From Vicinamibacterales bacterium (GTDB lineage: Bacteria > Acidobacteriota > Vicinamibacteria > Vicinamibacterales > JAMQPK01), in assembly GCA_963787755.1 (NCBI GenBank), contig CAWBEG010000002.1:351101-415100 (forward strand): a DNA stretch of 64,000 nt. Reading direction: 5' to 3'. Both the position numbers and the translations under genes were made by a program. Positions 23,114 through 32,562 of this stretch are shown one piece after another; within the stretch, counting starts at the first letter, position 1; the number at the start of each line of letters is the position of its first letter. Under the pieces are notes generated by a model. The model was not told the origin of the DNA. It was given only the letters and a program-made list of their open reading frames with translations, and searched no databases.

Positions 23114-24276
23114 ATCCACGGCAGGAATTTGAAGATCGTCTTGCAGCCGCGCTCGCCGAGCTGCGAGGCGCGGGCCTGCTGCGACAAATGCGGCTCCCGA
23201 TCGGGATCGATCTTGTCTCGAACGACTACCTCGGGCTTGCCGAACATCCGCATTTAAGAGAGAGAATGCGCGCCAGCGTCGCCGACCTTCCCGCCGGGTC
23301 CGGCGGTTCGCGCCTTCTGCGTGGTCATCATGAAATATTCGAGATCATCGAAGAGCGGCTCGCAGCGTTCACGGGTTCCGAGTCCGCGTTGCTCTTTGGA
23401 TCCGGATACGCAGCCAATATCGGGCTGCTGCAGGCCGTCGTGTCGACAGACGATCTGATCGTGTCCGATGCGCGCAACCATGCGAGTCTCATCGACGGCA
23501 TCCGTCTGACGAAGGCGGCGACCGCGATTTATCCGCACCAGGACTTGAACGCGCTCGAGGCGGTGCTTTCACAACCCCGCAGAGGGCGCGCGCTGGTCAT
23601 CACCGAAAGCGTGTTCAGCATGGATGGCGATCTGACGCCACTGCGCGAGATCTGCGATATCGCCGAGCGCGCGCGTGCCGTCGTCATCGTCGACGAGGCG
23701 CACGCGACGGGGATGTACGGGTCGCGCGGATCGGGACGCGTCGAAGAGCTTGGCCTGCGCGATCGTGTCGTCGCCACGATGCACACAGGAGGGAAGGCGC
23801 TGGGCTCCGGCGGCGCGTGGGTGGCCGGATCGCGCGCGCTGCGCGATGTGATGGTGAATCGTGCGCGCTCGTTCATTTTTTCGACGGCGCCGCTGCCCGT
23901 CCTGGGTGCGGCGCTTGGCGCGGGGCTGCATCTCGTCGAGCGCGAGCCGGAGCGGCGGCGCGAGGCGCACCGGAAGGCGTGCGTATTGAGAGGTGCGCTT
24001 CGTGAAAATGGCGTGCAGGCCGACGGCGAGTCGATGATCGTGCCGATCATCGCGGGCGCGAACGAGGCGGCGACAGCTTTGCAGTCTGGTTTGTCGGCCG
24101 CCGGCTTCGATGTGCGCGCCATCCGACCGCCGTCGGTGCCTGCGGGCACCGCGCGGTTGCGTGTGACCGTCCGCTATCCTGTGGCCGATGCCGATCTGGT
24201 GCGATTCGCGTCCGAGGTCGCGCGACTTACGTATCACGTAAAAATGGGGTCTGACCCTCTTGCCACCAACCCCTGA
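23110..24276 (+). CDS. bioF: 8-amino-7-oxononanoate synthase
   Basis: ATG at 23110 overlaps the bioB stop (ATGA). [23 protein letters not shown] and a [11 protein letters not shown] region containing the PLP lysine are present. Confidence 0.9.
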
Positions 24277-25625
24277 GGATATTCGACGCTGGGATGCGGA
24301 CCATGTCTGGCATCCGTTTACCCAGATGCGCGAATACCTCGCCACCGAGCCGCTGGTTGTCGTGCGCGCGGAGGGCAACTACCTCATAGACGATCGCGGC
24401 AGGCGCCTGCTCGACGGCACATCGGCGCTGTGGTGCAACCTTCTCGGACACCGCGTTCCAGAAATCGACGCTGCGGTTAGCTATCAGCTTGGACGATTTG
24501 CGCACACCACGCTGCTGGGTACGACCCATCCGGCAGTGGCCGAGCTTGCGCGGCGGCTCGTCGAGATCGCCCCGGGCGGGCTGAATCACGTGTTCTTCTC
24601 AGACAACGGCGCCACGGCCGTGGAAGCCGCGCTGAAGATGGCGTTCCAGTACCGGCTGCTCACGCAGGGCAGCGAGGCCGCAAAACACGCGGTCTATCTG
24701 AGCCTCGGCAACGCGTATCACGGCGACACGCTTGGCGCCGCGGCTGTCGGCGGCGTCGAGCTCTTCCACGACATCTTCAAGCCAATCCTGCTTCCGTCGC
24801 TGAAGACACCGTCTCCGGTACTGCTATCGATGTCCGGTTGGAAAGACGCCGTCGGACTGCTCGATCGATTGCGCCGATGAACTGGAGCAGGCGCTGCGCC
24901 GCGCGGAGGGTCGTGTGTGTGCCGTGATTCTCGAGCCTGGCGTCCAGGCCGCTGCTGGGATGCTGACGCTGCCGTCAGGTTTTCTGTCGCGCGCCGCCGA
25001 GGCGTGCCGCGCGCACGGCGCGCTGCTGATTCTCGATGAGGTCGCCACGGGATTCGGCCGCACGGGAACGATGTTCGCGTGTCAACGCGAGGGAGTGACG
25101 CCGGACCTGATGTGTGTCGCGAAAGGGCTGACGGGCGGCTATCTTCCTGTGGCAGCCACTCTGGCCACCGATCGGGTCTACGACGCGTTTCTCGGGCGTT
25201 ACGATGAATACCGCCATTTTTTTCACGGCCACACTTACACGGGCAACGCGCTCGGGTGTGCCGCGGCGCTGGCGACGCTCGGGCTGCTGTCGGATGGTGT
25301 CATCGTCGGCGCGGTCGAGCAGAAGGCGGGAGTGCTGCGAGATGCCCTTGCGCCGCTTGCCGCGCATCGCCACGTCGGCGACATCCGGCAGGCCGGTCTC
25401 ATGTGCGGCATCGAGATCGTCTCCAATCGCGAGACGAAAGCGTCGTTTGCGCCAGGCGAGCGCAATGGATACCACATCTGTCTCGCGCTTCGCGATCGAG
25501 GAATTTTCCTTCGGCCGCTCGGTGATGTGATCGTGCTGATGCCGCCCTTGTCGGTGACCGACGCTGAGCTCCGGCATCTCGCTGCATCAGTCCACGCAGT
25601 CGTCGTGGAGCGATTCGGTGCGTGA
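24260..25625 (+). CDS. bioA: Adenosylmethionine-8-amino-7-oxononanoate aminotransferase, frame broken
   Basis: TTG start. HVWHPFTQM, FFSDNGATAVEAALKMA, LILDEVATGFGRTG, CVAKGLTGGY and HGHTYTGN are present. The frame changes near 24850-24900. Confidence 0.85.
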
Positions 25626-26478: not shown

Positions 26479-26531
26479 ATATGTATTCACTATGGTCACG
26501 TTGGCAGCCCGATTGCTCTTCAAGCTGCCGT

Positions 26532-29072
26532 ATGGATACTCGAATCGCTCGTTTGAGACAAATAGTGATGGTTCTTGGGGTGACAGCGTTGGCTGTTCCC
26601 GGCGCTGCATACGCGCAAGCGGCACCCGATGCGAAGCTCGACGAGTCGCTTCGGGAGTCCGTCGAACGTGGGTGCGTCGGAACCCAGCCGGTCATCATCA
26701 GGACTAAACGCGGCTATCGCCAGGCAGTTCGGGATTCGCTGACAGCCCACGGCGATGTCATCAAAGGGGAGTTTCCCTCGCTCGATGCGATCGCGGCCGT
26801 CGTCCACTGCGACGACCTCTCGACGCTTCCGGCGTTCGACTTAGTCTTGTCCGTTTCGCTGAACGGCCCCGTAGCCGTCCAGGGGCTGACCGTGCCGATC
26901 TTGACCAGCACGGCGCAGCCAGCCGTCACGACCGCGCGTGCGACCCTCGTGGCAGCAAAGGCCAGCGCGCTCGAGGCGCAAAAGGCTGTGGGCGAGGCGG
27001 AGAAGGCCGCAGCGCTTGCCAACTCGCAGGTCACCGCGGCGAAGGAGGCGTTGATCGTCGCCAACCGCCTGACGGGCGATGCGAAAATCACGGTGATTGC
27101 GACGGCGCAGGCAAAGCTGGTGCAGGCAGAGGCCGTTCAGGACGCTGCACAGAATACGCTGGAGACGGTGCGCAGGACCGCAACCGGTTTGCAGGCGTCG
27201 GCGCTCAACGCGCAGAAGGCATTCGTCGATGCACAGGAACAGTCTCTGGGAGGAGTATTGTCGATCCGCGAGCGCGAAGGCAAAGCAGCGCGTTCGCTGA
27301 AGAAGAAGTTTTTCGCGACGATGCCCGTCCGGGCATCGCAATTCCACACCGATGCCGAGTTCGATAACGAGACCGTCGACTACACCTCGCTCGAGGCGTA
27401 CACGCAGACCGGTGGCGGCGCCGGCGTTGGCGTGGCCGTTGTCGACTCGGGTATCGAGCCGGGCACCGACTTCGACAGTCGGATTGCGGCGTTCTACGAC
27501 TTCACGCACGGCGACATCCGCGCAGTGACACCCATGGATCCGTACGGCCATGGCTCGCACGTCGCGGGGTTGATCGCGAGTGAGTTCGTTGGCGTCGCAC
27601 CCAACGCGCGGCTGATTGGCCTGCGCGTGCTCAATGAGGAGGGGCAGGGCGACACGGCGAACGTCGTGCGCGCCATCGAGTTCGCGATTGCGAACAAGGA
27701 CCTGCTCGGCATCGACGTCTTGAATCTCTCGCTCGGCCATCCGATTTATGAGCCGGCAGCGAGCGACCCGCTCGTGCAGGCCGTCGAGCACGCGACGCGT
27801 GAGGGCATCGTCGTCGTGGTTTCGGCCGGCAACTTCGGTTTGAACAGGAAGACGGGTGTTGCGGGCTACGGCGGCATCACATCGCCCGGCAACGCTCCAT
27901 CGGCGCTGACGGCAGGCGCCGTGCGCACGTTCAATACCGTGACTCGCGTCGACGACCGCGTTGCGCCCTACAGCTCGCGCGGGCCTTCGTGGTACGACGG
28001 CTTCGCAAAGCCCGACTTCGTCGCGCCCGGCGATAACCTGCTTTCTATCGCAGCCGCCGGCAGCGCACTTCGCCTGGCACAGGAACAGCGCGGTAATACC
28101 GGGAATTACATGCGCCTCTCGGGCACCAGCATGGCGGCTGGCGTCGCGAGCGGCGTCGTGGCGCTCGTGCTGCAAGCCAACGGCGATCTGACACCGAACG
28201 CGGTGAAAGCCGTGCTCGAGTACACCTCGATTCCGGTGCTCGACGACGACGGCAGCCGGTTCGATCCGCTCGCGCAGGGCGCCGGCCAGATTGAAGTGAC
28301 TGGATCGGTGGCGCTGGCGCGCGCCATCAATCCGCAGGCGCCCGTCGGAACGCCTTGGTTGTCAACGACGCTGACACCCTCGACCATCATCGGTAACCAG
28401 TCGTATGCCTGGTCGCAGTCGATCATCTGGGGCGCCCGTCGCGTCGTGGGCGAGCAGCTGATGACCGAGCAGCGTCCCGCATGGGGTCTCAACATCATCT
28501 GGGGCGAGGGCCTCGGTAATGAAGACGACAACATCGTCTGGGGGAATAACTTCGGCGATGACGACAACATCGTCTGGGGCAATTCGTTCGACGATGACGA
28601 CAACATCGTCTGGGGCAACAACCTCGTCTGGGGTGAGTCGCTCGGCGACGACGACAACATCGTGTGGGGTAATAAGTTCGACGACGATGACAACATCGTG
28701 TGGGGCAATAGGTTCGACGACGACGACAACATCGTGTGGGGCAACAACATTGTATGGGGCTCGAGCCTCCTCGGCCTTAGCCTCGACGACGACAACATCG
28801 TCTGGGGCAACAGCGACGATGACAACATCGTGTGGGGGAACCTCGACGACGACAACATCGTGTGGGGCAATCTCTACGACGACAACATTGTGTGGGGCAA
28901 CAGCGACGACGACAACATCGTCTGGGGTAACGACCTGGGTGATGACGACAATATCGTGTGGGGCAACACCTCGCAGCTCGGCAGTGTGTTCAAGTGGAGC
29001 GGCGGGTTTGTCTCAAGTAAAGCGTCGGACGCACGCGCTCGGCGTACCGTCCGCAGGGGAGGGGTGAACTAG
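26532..29072 (+). CDS. Secreted S8 subtilisin-like serine protease with an Ala-rich coiled-coil insert and a C-terminal DDDNIVWGN repeat array
   Basis: The signal peptide is MDTRIARLRQIVMVLGVTALAVPGAAYAQA, followed by an I9-like propeptide. The catalytic motifs are VAVVDSGI (Asp), YGHGSHVAG (His), SAGNFG and SGTSMAAG (Ser). The protein ends in 12 full DDNIVWGN units. Confidence 0.85.
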   Translation: MDTRIARLRQIVMVLGVTALAVPGAAYAQAAPDAKLDESLRESVERGCVGTQPVIIRTKRGYRQAVRDSLTAHGDVIKGEFPSLDAIAAVVHCDDLSTLPAFDLVLSVSLNGPVAVQGLTVPILTSTAQPAVTTARATLVAAKASALEAQKAVGEAEKAAALANSQVTAAKEALIVANRLTGDAKITVIATAQAKLVQAEAVQDAAQNTLETVRRTATGLQASALNAQKAFVDAQEQSLGGVLSIREREGKAARSLKKKFFATMPVRASQFHTDAEFDNETVDYTSLEAYTQTGGGAGVGVAVVDSGIEPGTDFDSRIAAFYDFTHGDIRAVTPMDPYGHGSHVAGLIASEFVGVAPNARLIGLRVLNEEGQGDTANVVRAIEFAIANKDLLGIDVLNLSLGHPIYEPAASDPLVQAVEHATREGIVVVVSAGNFGLNRKTGVAGYGGITSPGNAPSALTAGAVRTFNTVTRVDDRVAPYSSRGPSWYDGFAKPDFVAPGDNLLSIAAAGSALRLAQEQRGNTGNYMRLSGTSMAAGVASGVVALVLQANGDLTPNAVKAVLEYTSIPVLDDDGSRFDPLAQGAGQIEVTGSVALARAINPQAPVGTPWLSTTLTPSTIIGNQSYAWSQSIIWGARRVVGEQLMTEQRPAWGLNIIWGEGLGNEDDNIVWGNNFGDDDNIVWGNSFDDDDNIVWGNNLVWGESLGDDDNIVWGNKFDDDDNIVWGNRFDDDDNIVWGNNIVWGSSLLGLSLDDDNIVWGNSDDDNIVWGNLDDDNIVWGNLYDDNIVWGNSDDDNIVWGNDLGDDDNIVWGNTSQLGSVFKWSGGFVSSKASDARARRTVRRGGVN
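28521..28967 (+). repeat. In-frame tandem coding repeat: 12 full plus 2 short units of (x)1-4 DDDNIVWGN
   Basis: The DNA unit gacgacgacaacatcgt(c/g)tgggg(c/t)aa(c/t) recurs with a 30-36 nt period. The protein reads NEDDNIVWGNNFGDDDNIVWGNSFDDDDNIVWGNNLVWGESLGDDDNIVWGNKFDDDDNIVWGN... Confidence 0.95.
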
Positions 29073-29737
29073 TGGCCACCCACATGCCGTCCACCTCCTC
29101 CTACGCGGAAATGCCCGTGTCCATGGTCAACACGAGCGTCACAGCGGCAGTCAGTTCGGATTGGAAGGCGCAGCTGCCAGTTCTTCAGGCGAAGGGCATC
29201 ACGCTGCGCGAGCTTCGCGTGAGTGATGCGTCCGCTCTGCTCTCACTGCTGACGACCGAAGAAGTGACCCGCTTCATCTCGCCGCCTCCGACGACGGTTG
29301 ATGGCTTCGAGCGGTTCATCCAGTGGGCGCAGCGCGAACGCGAAGCGGGACGATATATCTGCTTCGCGGTCGTGCCCGCCGGCTGCGACACGGCAGTGGG
29401 ACTCTTTCAGATTCGGCAGTTGGATTCGACGTTCGGTACCGCCGAATGGGGCTTTGCGCTCGGCTCGGCATTCTGGGGGTCCGGCCTGTTCGTGTCCGGT
29501 GCGGAGCTCATGATTGATTTCGCGTTCGATGTAGTTGGCGTGCATCGGTTGGAAGCTCGGGCTGCGGTCGAGAACGGCCGAGGCAATGGCGCGCTACGCA
29601 AGATTGGCGCAGTGCAGGAGGGTGTTTTGAGAAAGTCATTCCTTCGTAACGGTCGATTCCTGGATCAAGCCCTGTGGGCGATTCTTCCCGAAGACCGCTA
29701 TCGTCCGAAAGCGGTCTGGGGCTCGAAGGTTAACTAG
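29072..29737 (+). CDS. GNAT N-acetyltransferase, RimJ/RimL (Acetyltransf_3)-like, translationally coupled to the subtilase
   Basis: GTG at 29072 overlaps the protease TAG by 1 nt (TAGTG). LRELRVSDASALLSLL, WGFALGSAFWGSG, VHRLEARAAVENGRGNGALRKIGAVQEGVLRKSF are present. There is no signal peptide. Confidence 0.85.
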   Translation: MATHMPSTSSYAEMPVSMVNTSVTAAVSSDWKAQLPVLQAKGITLRELRVSDASALLSLLTTEEVTRFISPPPTTVDGFERFIQWAQREREAGRYICFAVVPAGCDTAVGLFQIRQLDSTFGTAEWGFALGSAFWGSGLFVSGAELMIDFAFDVVGVHRLEARAAVENGRGNGALRKIGAVQEGVLRKSFLRNGRFLDQALWAILPEDRYRPKAVWGSKVN

Positions 29738-30075: not shown

Positions 30076-31917
30076 ATGGCGGGCATGGATCAGAGATACC
30101 TATCGCACGCCTTGGTGGCAATCGCGATCGCGGTTGCTCCGGGCAAAGCTGTTTGGGGAAAGGAACGCCCGATCCCCAACGGCAAACTCGATAAGCACCT
30201 TCAGGCGGTGGTCACGGATGGCTGCTCTGGAGGATCGAGGCGAGTCATCATCAGCGTCAAGAGTGGTTACCGCAAAGGAATGGGGGACGCGCTCAAGGCC
30301 CATGGCGATAAGGTAAAGGGAGAGTTCAAATCGATTGATGCCGTCGCGGCAGAGGTTCACTGCGATGACCTCGGCGCGCTCGCGAACATGTCGGAGACCA
30401 CGTCGATCTCGATCGATGGGCCGATGGACACTCACGCCGTCGCTCGAGGGAAGAAGACGCCCACGCTTACGCAGGCTCAAGCGGCTGCCGCGCTTCAGGC
30501 TCCGGTTTTCCAGTCGACGCTGTCCTGGCCCCAGCTTCGCGCGGCCAGCTATCTCGGCTCGCCGTACACCTCGACGGATAACTCACTTAGAAACACCGTT
30601 AACGCGCTCCTTGACGCCGGCATAACCGGGGCCGCGGGCGGTATCGGCATTGCGGTTATCGATTCTGGCATTGCTCCGGGGCCCGAATTCGAGAATCGCA
30701 TCACGGCATTCTACGACTTCACCAAAGGCGACATTCAGGCGGTCGCTCCTCTCGACTCGTACGGACATGGCACACACGTCGCCGGACTCATTACCGGCAC
30801 CAACGTCGGTGTGGCGCCCGGGGCACGCGTTATCGGATTACGAGTGCTGGACGCCAATGGTAAGGGGACAACGAGCGACGTGCTTCGCGCCCTCGAATTC
30901 GCGGTCGAGAACAAGGCGGCTCTGAATCTGCACATCATCAACCTGTCTCTCGGCCATCCGATTTATGAGTCCGCCGGCACCGATCCGTTGGTGCAGGCTG
31001 TCGAAAACGCGGTGCGACACGGTTTGATTGTCAGCGTGTCGGCCGGCAACTTCGGCATCAACAAGAAGACTGGCGAGCCAGGTTACGCAGGCATTGCGTC
31101 ACCTGGGAATGCGCCTTCGGCGATCACGAGCGGCTCGACCAACATGTTCGACACGATCAGGCGAGTCGACGATCGCGTTTCAGCGTTCAGCTCGCGCGGG
31201 CCGACGTGGTACGACGGTTTCCTGAAGCCGGATGTCGTTGCTCCTGGCCAGAACGTCCTCTCCGTCGCAGCGGTTGGGAGCCGCCTGCGGATGATGCAGG
31301 AGCTCCGCGGCAATACGGGCGAGTACATGCGCCTGAGCGGAACGAGCATGGCGGCGGCTGTTACAAGCGGTGTCATCGCGCTCACGATCGACATCAACCC
31401 GAAGCTGACGGCGAACGCTCTCAGGGCCGTTCTTCAATATTCCGCCATCCCAGTGCTGAGCAGCACCGGTGCAACAGCCGACGCGCTGACACAGGGCGCC
31501 GGCCAGATCAACGGGGGCGGCGCGATCGCGCTTGCGTGGGTGATTACCGCCGATGCGCCGATGGGTTCGAAGTGGCTGACAGCCGGCCATCAGACGATCA
31601 CACCGACGACGGACATCGGTGACAGCAAATACACCTGGTCGCAGTCGATCCTTTGGGGTGCACGGAGGCTGTCGGGCGCGAATCTGATGACCGAGCAGCG
31701 GCCCGCGTGGGGCGCGGGGATTGTGTGGGGCGAGGGCCTTGGCAGCGAAGACGACAACATCGTGTGGGGCAACAGCTTCGCTGACGACGACAACATCGTC
31801 TGGGGAAATGCCCTCGACACCGATGACAACATCGTCTGGGGTAACAACGACGATGACAATATCGTCTGGGGCAACAGTCTTCTCACGACGTCGTCAGGAA
31901 AGGGTGGCAAACAATAA
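30076..31917 (+). CDS. Secreted S8 subtilisin-like serine protease, paralog of 26532..29072, with 4 DDNIVWGN units
   Basis: It has the same propeptide (KGEFKSIDAVAAEVHCDDL), IAVIDSGI, YGHGTHVAG, SAGNFG and SGTSMAAA. The C-terminus reads GSEDDNIVWGNSFADDDNIVWGNALDTDDNIVWGNNDDDNIVWGN. It lacks the coiled-coil insert. Confidence 0.85.
   Translation: MAGMDQRYLSHALVAIAIAVAPGKAVWGKERPIPNGKLDKHLQAVVTDGCSGGSRRVIISVKSGYRKGMGDALKAHGDKVKGEFKSIDAVAAEVHCDDLGALANMSETTSISIDGPMDTHAVARGKKTPTLTQAQAAAALQAPVFQSTLSWPQLRAASYLGSPYTSTDNSLRNTVNALLDAGITGAAGGIGIAVIDSGIAPGPEFENRITAFYDFTKGDIQAVAPLDSYGHGTHVAGLITGTNVGVAPGARVIGLRVLDANGKGTTSDVLRALEFAVENKAALNLHIINLSLGHPIYESAGTDPLVQAVENAVRHGLIVSVSAGNFGINKKTGEPGYAGIASPGNAPSAITSGSTNMFDTIRRVDDRVSAFSSRGPTWYDGFLKPDVVAPGQNVLSVAAVGSRLRMMQELRGNTGEYMRLSGTSMAAAVTSGVIALTIDINPKLTANALRAVLQYSAIPVLSSTGATADALTQGAGQINGGGAIALAWVITADAPMGSKWLTAGHQTITPTTDIGDSKYTWSQSILWGARRLSGANLMTEQRPAWGAGIVWGEGLGSEDDNIVWGNSFADDDNIVWGNALDTDDNIVWGNNDDDNIVWGNSLLTTSSGKGGKQ
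31747..31875 (+). repeat. In-frame tandem coding repeat, 4 DDNIVWGN units
   Basis: The same 24-nt core as 28521-28967. Confidence 0.9.
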
Positions 31918-32562
31918 TGGCCACCCAAATGGTCGAGACGTTTTCATCGCCGATCACCCGAACGACGACAGTTGTTGACGCACATTGGCGGAAAGCGCTG
32001 CCGGTTCTGCACGGCAAAGGTTTCACGCTTCGTGAACTGCGCGTTACCGACGCCACCACGCTACTCTCACTGCTGACGACTGAGGAAGTGACGCGGTTCA
32101 TCTCGCCGCCCCCGACGACAGTCGCCGGTTTCGAGCGGTTCATCCAGTGGGCCCAACGCGAGCGTGAGGCAGGACGCTATGTCTGCTTCGCGGTCGTGCC
32201 CGCCGGCTGCGACACGGCAGTGGGACTCTTTCAGATTCGGCAGATGGATTCGACGTTCGGGTACCGCCGAATGGGGTTTTGCGCTTGGCTCGGCATTCTG
32301 GGGGTCCGGCCTGTTCGTGTCCGGTGCAGAGCTCATGATTGATTTCGCGTTCGATGTAGTTGGCGTGCATCGGTTGGAAGCTCGGGCTGCGGTCGAGAAC
32401 GGCCGAGGCAATGGCGCGCTACGCAAGATTGGCGCAGTGCAGGAGGGTGTTTTGAGAAAGTCATTCCTTCGTAATGGTCGATTCCTGGATCAGGCGCTGT
32501 GGGCGATTCTTCCCGAAGACCGCTATCGTCCGAAAGCCGTCTGGGGCTCGAAGGTCAACTAG
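31917..32562 (+). CDS. GNAT N-acetyltransferase, paralog of 29072..29737, one frame break
   Basis: ATG at 31917 overlaps the protease TAA by 1 nt (TAATG). The break is at GGG 32259-32261, where the paralog has GG. The 3' ~400 nt are nearly identical to 29340-29737. Confidence 0.75.

Follow-up and report, generated by a model that had tools for sequence, protein, structure and literature searches.

Why are short tandem repeats nearly identical at the DNA level in two neighbouring protease genes, and why does one gene carry 12 full units and the other four? The question arises in a 64-kb stretch of a Vicinamibacterales bacterium (positions 351,101 to 415,100 of contig CAWBEG010000002.1; hereafter "the window"), which holds two paralogous genes for S8 peptidases, each ending in an array of short, Asp-rich repeat units. 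An earlier note on this DNA had proposed that the units are homogenised at the DNA level and that the pattern reflects recent expansion or contraction, or concerted evolution. We instead consider it probable that the array is an old, position-specific repeat domain carried by a clade of S8 peptidases, that its DNA identity comes from a conserved peptide and codon usage, that in-register insertions and deletions (indels) of units occur occasionally, and that paralog 2 has contracted. The two genes and the parts of their repeat tails are as follows:

26481-29072, forward strand: paralog 1, a secreted pro-subtilase (S8) with a long repeat tail; open reading frame (ORF) of 863 aa, or 834 aa from the database start Met at 26568
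28410-28505, forward strand: pre-repeat segment WSQSIIWG...RPAWGLNIIWG, with two degenerate "IIWG" motifs
28521-28967, forward strand: array 1, with 12 full (x)DDDNIVWGN units of 10-13 codons (one of 16) and two 6-codon units
28617-28634, forward strand: short unit NNLVWG, which closes block A; a short unit stands at the equivalent position in orthologs and in other paralog types
28743-28760, forward strand: short unit NNIVWG, which closes block B and is followed by the 16-codon "hinge" unit SSLLGLSLDDDNIVWG
28968-29072, forward strand: basic C-terminal tail of the paralog-1 type, NTSQLGSVFKWSGGFVSSKASDARARRTVRRGGVN, conserved in type-1 and type-1b proteins
30076-31917, forward strand: paralog 2, an S8 peptidase with a contracted repeat tail; ORF of 613 aa
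31747-31875, forward strand: array 2, with four DDNIVWGN units of 13, 12, 12 and 10 codons

The degenerate DNA pattern GAYGAYAAYATHGTNTGGGGNAAY, which encodes DDNIVWGN, matches the window 16 times (12 matches at 28524-28967 and four at 31750-31875), and 100 shuffles indicated that none would be expected by chance. These matches, together with the in-frame S8 ORFs, confirm that the repeat is present in both paralogs with 12 and four units. The periods found by Tandem Repeats Finder are 36, 30 and 18 nt, with a higher-order one of 126 nt. Array 1 begins with units of 13, 12 and 12 codons, then the 6-codon NNLVWG, three 12-codon units and the 6-codon NNIVWG; its second part consists of the 16-codon SSLLGLSLDDDNIVWG, four 10-codon units and a last unit of 12 codons, giving start-to-start spacings of 36, 36, 18, 36, 36, 36, 18, 48, 30, 30, 30, 30 and 36 nt. 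The spacing of 10-12 codons and the D-less short units described in the earlier note are therefore borne out, with the addition that the spacing applies to full units and that one unit has 16 codons. Array 2 has neither the short units nor the hinge nor the NLDDD/NLYDD units of its relatives. Upstream of each array stand two degenerate motifs, as had also been noticed: WSQSI(I/L)WG, followed by NIIWG in paralog 1 or GIVWG in paralog 2 (in paralog 1, SIIWG in the 28410-28433 region and NIIWG at 28491-28505), and the W and G of this pre-repeat segment are invariant in 99 homologs. All units are multiples of 3 nt, each can be told apart by its linker or its synonymous sites, and the longest exact repeat within the array is 27 nt. 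On the minus strand, a 254-aa ORF (28106-28870) with PHTMLSSS-like repeats and a high G+C content at third codon positions runs antisense to the array; it is a by-product of a stop-free repeat on the opposite strand and not a gene.

How similar should such units be? Resampling codons for the observed peptides, either from the usage of the window's genes or from the proteases' own non-repeat parts, gives an expected mean pairwise identity of 0.84 over the 27-nt core. All units were aligned at the DNA level, a check that the earlier note had suggested, and the observed value was 0.88, so the 88% core identity is mostly explained by peptide and codon usage (84%). The description of the core as almost invariant holds for this mean but not for every site, because the third positions of Val, Gly, the second Asn and one Asp vary freely, as expected: Val is 8 GTC and 8 GTG, the four Gly codons occur 10, 3, 2 and 1 times, the trailing Asn is 10 AAC and 6 AAT, and Asp(-2) is 12 GAC and 4 GAT. 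Near-identity of the nucleotides would then be mostly a by-product of protein constraint and codon preference.

Comparison between genomes bears more directly on homogenisation. We used nine orthologous type-1 genes with an identical 15-unit layout and measured the synonymous third-position identity of the DDNIVWG core; the within/between-unit comparison was also made in a three-genome version. Different units of the same gene have an identity of 0.787 and different units of different genomes 0.789, while the same (orthologous) unit in different genomes reaches 0.831. There is no within-genome excess, and the units keep their positional orthology, so the homogenisation or concerted evolution claimed earlier finds no support here. 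Conversion between the two paralogs' arrays is likewise unsupported, since tandem paralogs are as similar within a genome (0.796) as between genomes (0.800). Rare codons are inherited by position in the window, L001 and L002 (the final unit has AAT, the first GGG and GAA); L-numbers here and below denote related loci. Block A and block B, which make up the 126-nt super-repeat, show no within-genome excess identity over the between-genome value, and a recent duplication of block A into block B was rejected on this ground. Between the window's own paralogs, synonymous identity is 0.47 in the catalytic domain, which is saturated, and a nearby 0.58 in the arrays.

Recent or ongoing gene conversion or unequal crossing-over within and between the arrays, with the 12-unit array as a recent expansion, is therefore a very unlikely account, although it has some points in its favour. 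The core's synonymous identity is somewhat above the codon-usage expectation, the Val codons of units 1-6 run GTC, GTC, GTC, GTG, GTG, GTG, the 126-nt higher-order repeat is 87% identical, conversion does act at this locus in the 3' halves of two downstream acetyltransferase genes, and the unit consensus is lineage-specific over deep time. Each of the comparisons above nevertheless goes the other way, and the layout of 12 full and two short units (12+2) and its position-specific linkers are common to paralog types whose synonymous sites are saturated. For the time since the sampled genomes split (synonymous divergence, dS, up to 0.44), these gene comparisons already contradict homogenisation.

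The age of the architecture points to the same conclusion. The spacing series 24, 13, 12, 12, 6, 12, 12, 12, 6, 16, 10, 10, 10, 10, 12 reappears, slightly altered, in dozens of homologs with identities as low as about 55%. Types 1, 1b and 2 have in common the two short units, the hinge (S/N)GL(I/V)GMSLDDDNIVWG and a run of NLDDD-NLDDD-NLYDD. Because these position-specific features are common to the paralog types, the 12+2 layout predates the paralog split, which argues against a recent expansion to 12 units and makes the difference of 12 versus four a contraction of paralog 2. It had also been suggested that the repeat grew outward from an older structural motif. The IIWG segment is indeed conserved and confidently modelled as beta strands, which makes that idea compatible with the data.

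Repeat number is a variable trait on an evolutionary time scale, as the earlier note had supposed, and most of the change has been loss of units. Full-unit counts range from 0 to 14 across the family; type-1 tails have a mode of 12 (range 7-14) and type-2 tails one of 10 (4-11), with the four units of the window's paralog 2 as the type-2 minimum. When repeat counts were compared in related genomes, paralog 1 kept its 12+2 units in nine genomes, and the relatives of paralog 2 had 10 (P0081, 88% identical), 11 (L078), 7 (L001, at dS 0.15) and 5-6 (L079). Throughout, the length differences in paralog 2 consist of whole units and are in frame. Compared with P0081, paralog 2 of the window is missing the stretch from NDIVWG through NLYDDNIVWG, which is 78 codons; one or two deletions appear to have removed about eight units (about 78 codons). 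The rare GAT/AAT codons in the last unit of array 2 match an internal L001 unit, which would fit two deletions between identical cores of 17-24 nt. The paralog 2 of L001 has lost different units from that of the window: its first unit (L001_b) ends in a rare GGA, a codon that in the window, L078 and L079 is characteristic of unit 2. Unit 1 of L001_b therefore looks like a chimeric unit left by a one-unit deletion, as in-register crossover between cores predicts. In total, at least three independent indel events separate the window and L001 paralogs at dS 0.15.

Loss of units could mean that paralog 2 is decaying. Relaxed selection or pseudogenisation was rejected, however, because its catalytic motifs are intact and the ratio of nonsynonymous to synonymous divergence (dN/dS) in its non-repeat part (0.19, against L001) is close to that of paralog 1 (0.18). 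These ratios demonstrate purifying selection, and the whole-codon differences demonstrate that indels are in register, so what we see in paralog 2 is best described as tolerated length variation in a working gene. Paralog 1 has more substrate for slippage and yet is stable, which implies that selection on unit number differs between the paralogs.

One could go further and propose that the array, mainly that of paralog 2, is a contingency-type locus, in which frequent slippage maintains a standing heterogeneity of length that tunes the protease's reach or binding. The different unit number in each close paralog-2 relative, the three or more independent indels between the window and L001, and the continuing purifying selection on the gene would all suit such a locus. 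Phase variation would call for long runs of identical units or frame-shifting lengths, but the units are imperfect, exact repeats reach 27 nt at most, and lengths change by whole codons (multiples of 3), so no on/off switching would result. The stability in nine genomes of paralog 1, which has more units, also points to selection over mutation rate as the main determinant. We therefore rate this proposal as quite improbable.

All of these counts assume that the arrays were assembled correctly. Collapse or expansion during assembly could in principle produce a false 12, a false four or both, and base-level errors are possible, as the window contains two single-base frameshifts in otherwise conserved genes. 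However, with units that are distinguishable and no exact repeat longer than 27 nt, reads or k-mers of at least 100 nt resolve the array. Independent assemblies of at least nine genomes, from different projects and some with megabase-scale contigs, show the 15-unit layout, both ORFs are intact and in frame, and the differing paralog-2 lengths come from several independent assemblies with orderly unit boundaries. We give an artefact hardly any chance, and array collapse is unlikely on sequence grounds.

Several observations weigh against our reading and should be set beside it. First, the core's synonymous identity of 0.65 exceeds the 0.52 expected (P about 3e-4), an excess which stems from near-fixed GAC-AAC-ATC codons. 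Asp(-1) is GAC in 185/186 units from 18 genes, although only 74% of Asp codons in these genes' catalytic domains are GAC, and across the arrays of the window and L001-L012 the D-N-I codons as a whole are GAC, AAC and ATC in 185/186, 178/186 and 172/186 units, when the preferred codons reach only 69-74% in catalytic domains. This preference is common to all genomes and both paralogs, so it indicates a site-specific codon constraint and not homogenisation; we infer that it may come from selection favouring preferred codons where constraint on the residue is strongest. Second, distant family members have lineage-specific unit consensuses (DNIVWGT, GDNVVWGT, DNIVWGE, NIVWAT, DTIIWGQ), and some distant arrays have Gly/Arg- or Cys-containing linkers in place of DDD. 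Whole arrays therefore do turn over across long time scales, by unit birth and death or by conversion. To this extent the earlier idea holds for deep time, but it finds no support as recent homogenisation. Third, the acidic loop is not universal, given the Gly/Arg-rich linkers of some arrays, which would weaken a cation-binding role. Fourth, AlphaFold2, run with ions absent on the full-length protein (99 sequences) and on the C-terminal 279 aa (37 sequences of the same architecture), gave a predicted local distance difference test (pLDDT) score of about 30 across the array both times. Finally, the unit counts are taken from assembled sequence.

Each protease is followed immediately by a gene that provides a useful contrast:

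29072-29737, forward strand: GNAT acetyltransferase 1 (PF13302, E=7e-22)
31917-32562, forward strand: GNAT acetyltransferase 2 (PF13302), split by one extra base near 32261-32262

Protease stop and GNAT start overlap by 1 nt (TAGTG at 29070-29074, TAATG at 31915-31919). Among the fetched loci (L001-L079), a GNAT homolog starts between -60 and +300 nt from the stop in 89/109 repeat-bearing protease ORFs, and protease plus GNAT is a conserved two-gene module. The last 375 nt of the two GNAT genes (29362-29737 and 32186-32562) are 96-98% identical within the window, while each is less similar (89-96%) to its L001 ortholog, and the 5' parts of the two genes are only 44-79% identical. The 3' halves look clearly like a gene-conversion tract between the cassettes, ending at the stop codon. 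This tract serves as a positive control: conversion operates at the locus yet has not touched the protease arrays.

The extra base in GNAT 2 lies at 32256-32265, where the window reads TTCGGGTACC against TTCGG(T/G)-ACC, leaving ORFs at 31917-32342 and 32164-32562. A second extra base, in bioA at 24813-24820 (near 24817), reads CTCCGGTAC against CTCC-GTAC in L001 and leaves ORFs at 24260-24880 and 24915-25625. Either could be a real pseudogene or an assembly indel error.

In related contigs, the cassette pair or a single cassette sits between biotin genes and a major facilitator superfamily (MFS) transporter, and genomes differ in how many cassettes lie between bioD and the MFS gene and of which type. 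The window and L001-L009 have two cassettes, and L079 has a type-2 cassette only. The second protease is type 2 in the window and L001, and "type-1b" (tail ...LG.I.KW.GG...RARR) in L002, L003, L005, L007 and L009. In L006, L008 and L010, which are long-contig metagenome-assembled genomes (MAGs), the second protease's array is frameshifted into TTTSSGA- or RRQHRLG-type translations, and these broken arrays could be long-read indel errors or real decay.

The host proteins themselves are clear members of the S8 family. PF00082 matches paralog 1 (identical to P0001) at aa 313-588 with E=3e-48 and paralog 2 (identical to P0110) at aa 189-467 with E=1e-46, with scores of 164.9 and 156.7 bits (cutoff 21.8), and the Asp, His and Ser motifs are intact in both (VDSG/IDSG, HGSHV/HGTHVAG, GTSMA). 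Only one contig each was found to carry the exact proteins; those relatives that have names come almost entirely from Vicinamibacterales/Acidobacteriota MAGs, and the closest full-length relatives of paralog 2 have 637-710 aa. Judged by eye, without a predictor, the N-terminus of P0001 (from 26568) looks like a Sec signal peptide. AlphaFold2 models the propeptide and catalytic parts of paralog 1 with confidence (pLDDT >90 for the catalytic domain), and a Foldseek search of the PDB with the full-length model finds pro-subtilases as its top matches, the best being pro-Tk-SP (3afg, E=6e-24); this result covers the protease part only. The model also contains a helical hairpin of about 130 residues between the propeptide-like and catalytic domains (about 26916-27299, P0001 residues 117-244; pLDDT about 85-97 for most of it), which paralog 2 lacks.

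What, then, is the tail? Scanned against Pfam and NCBIfam, neither protein showed a match in its repeat, nor did the isolated tail at a threshold as loose as E<=10; the sequence search of the PDB yielded WD-repeat matches only, at E about 0.01 and attributable to chance, and a full-text literature search on "NIVWG" returned no biological paper. An exhaustive profile-free search of 1.84 billion proteins found only 588 cluster representatives. S8 is the domain context in 66/98 representatives of at least 230 aa among the matches listed, and the only other recurring context is GNAT (two members, by read-through of the downstream gene). Ice_binding, RTX and DUF4795 matches among the repeat representatives are single proteins; the DUF4795 match (P0163), which has no WG motif, was set aside as probably compositional. 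On this evidence, the repeat is an undescribed family almost confined to S8 peptidases of Vicinamibacterales.

Even over deep divergence, every unit of 10-12 residues has the invariant Trp, the Ile-Val pair and one further hydrophobic position (F or L). Together with the fixed unit number of paralog 1, this suggests a structured module, perhaps structured only with cations or a ligand. We propose, with low confidence, that the secreted protease has in its tail a beta-rich, solenoid-like module for spacing or binding. The alternative is that the tail is a disordered acidic linker in which short motifs recur, or a pro-segment at the C-terminus that maturation removes. Low AlphaFold2 confidence in both the full-length and C-terminal runs, a very high Asp content and the lack of a match to any structural family are what such a linker would show. 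The hydrophobic residues retained in every unit would be unusual for it, however, as would the conserved unit number and spacing of paralog 1. AlphaFold2 also models the pre-repeat segment as short beta strands, with high confidence to about P0001 residue 640, and its first degenerate IIWG motif as a strand packed on the protease. A disordered or removable tail is therefore unlikely, though we take it more seriously than the other alternatives. Distinctly doubtful is the most ambitious version of the structured tail, i.e., a new fold class beyond the reach of AlphaFold2, in which a Trp-ladder forms a beta solenoid induced by cations or ligand, serving as a length-adjustable protease tether or binding module that is tuned by slippage in paralog 2, with the GNAT functionally tied to it.

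Several known systems resemble the tail in part. The RTX beta-roll repeats of secreted proteases such as serralysins (PF00353) likewise follow the catalytic domain, vary in unit number among homologs and are built of short Asp-rich units that each contain a single hydrophobic, strand-like stretch. RTX repeats are unfolded without Ca2+. Here, however, the period is 10-12 residues (with 6 and 16) instead of 9, each unit has an invariant Trp-Gly and no GGxG turn, Asp is not universal in the family, and the protein has a putative N-terminal Sec signal (by eye) and no C-terminal type I secretion signal. PF00353 did not match the tail or an 80-aa stretch of pure repeat at E<=10, and the GGxGxDxUx motif was absent on reading.

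The serine-aspartate (SD) "R region" of staphylococcal ClfA/Sdr proteins is likewise an acidic, low-complexity, presumed spacer or stalk encoded by a degenerate, non-identical DNA repeat with in-frame length variation. SD repeats are disordered, glycosylated dipeptides with an LPXTG anchor, whereas the units here have 10-12 residues, an invariant hydrophobic core and a position-specific layout; no LPXTG is seen in either tail (NTSQLGSVFKWSGG...RARRTVRRGGVN and NSLLTTSSGKGGKQ), which therefore does not have the make-up of an SD-repeat stalk. Subtilase C-terminal extensions (the Tk-SP beta-jelly-roll, P/PPC) are also extra domains after the S8 domain of a pro-subtilase, but they are single globular domains of known fold, not a tandem array without detectable similarity. 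Choline-binding or cell-wall-binding repeats and Asp-box hairpins have short repeats with conserved Trp/Gly, and both are stacked hairpins that bind ligands. The units here are half as long as choline-binding repeats, and no Pfam match to the CW_binding or BNR models was found, including BNR/Asp-box (PF02012). By eye, xDDDNIVW resembles the Asp-box pattern SxDxGxTW (D at position 3, W at position 8), which we offer as a lead only.

Returning to the reading that we favour, a clade of Sec-secreted S8 peptidases peculiar to Vicinamibacterales would carry the array as a C-terminal tandem-repeat domain that is old and position-specific. Each unit, with its invariant N-I-V-W-G, would probably form a short beta strand and a turn, preceded by an acidic DDD loop. 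Purifying selection on this peptide, combined with a local preference for GAC, AAC, ATC, GGC and GTC/GTG, would produce near-identical nucleotides; the extra codon preference at the most constrained residues would add little, and ongoing gene conversion would play no part. Identical cores of 14-27 nt may then be where slippage or unequal recombination occasionally takes place in register, so that whole units would be lost or gained. In paralog 1, selection would hold the number at 12+2, and in paralog 2, variation would be tolerated. The tail may fold, possibly with cations or a ligand, and may act as a spacer or binding module.

A practical lesson is that near-identical DNA repeats need an ortholog test before concerted evolution is read into them. 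A strictly conserved motif of 8-9 residues plus codon bias alone gives about 84% identity, and the real conversion tract 400 nt downstream, in the GNAT genes, supplies the contrast. The mechanism proposed here is an ordinary one; what is new is an undescribed repeat domain in a soil acidobacterial order. A fixed unit number in one paralog and repeated loss in its neighbour suggest that the tail serves different functional needs in the two. Should the tail turn out to be a new solenoid dependent on cations or a ligand, it would be of interest both to structural biology and to research on extracellular proteolysis in soil.

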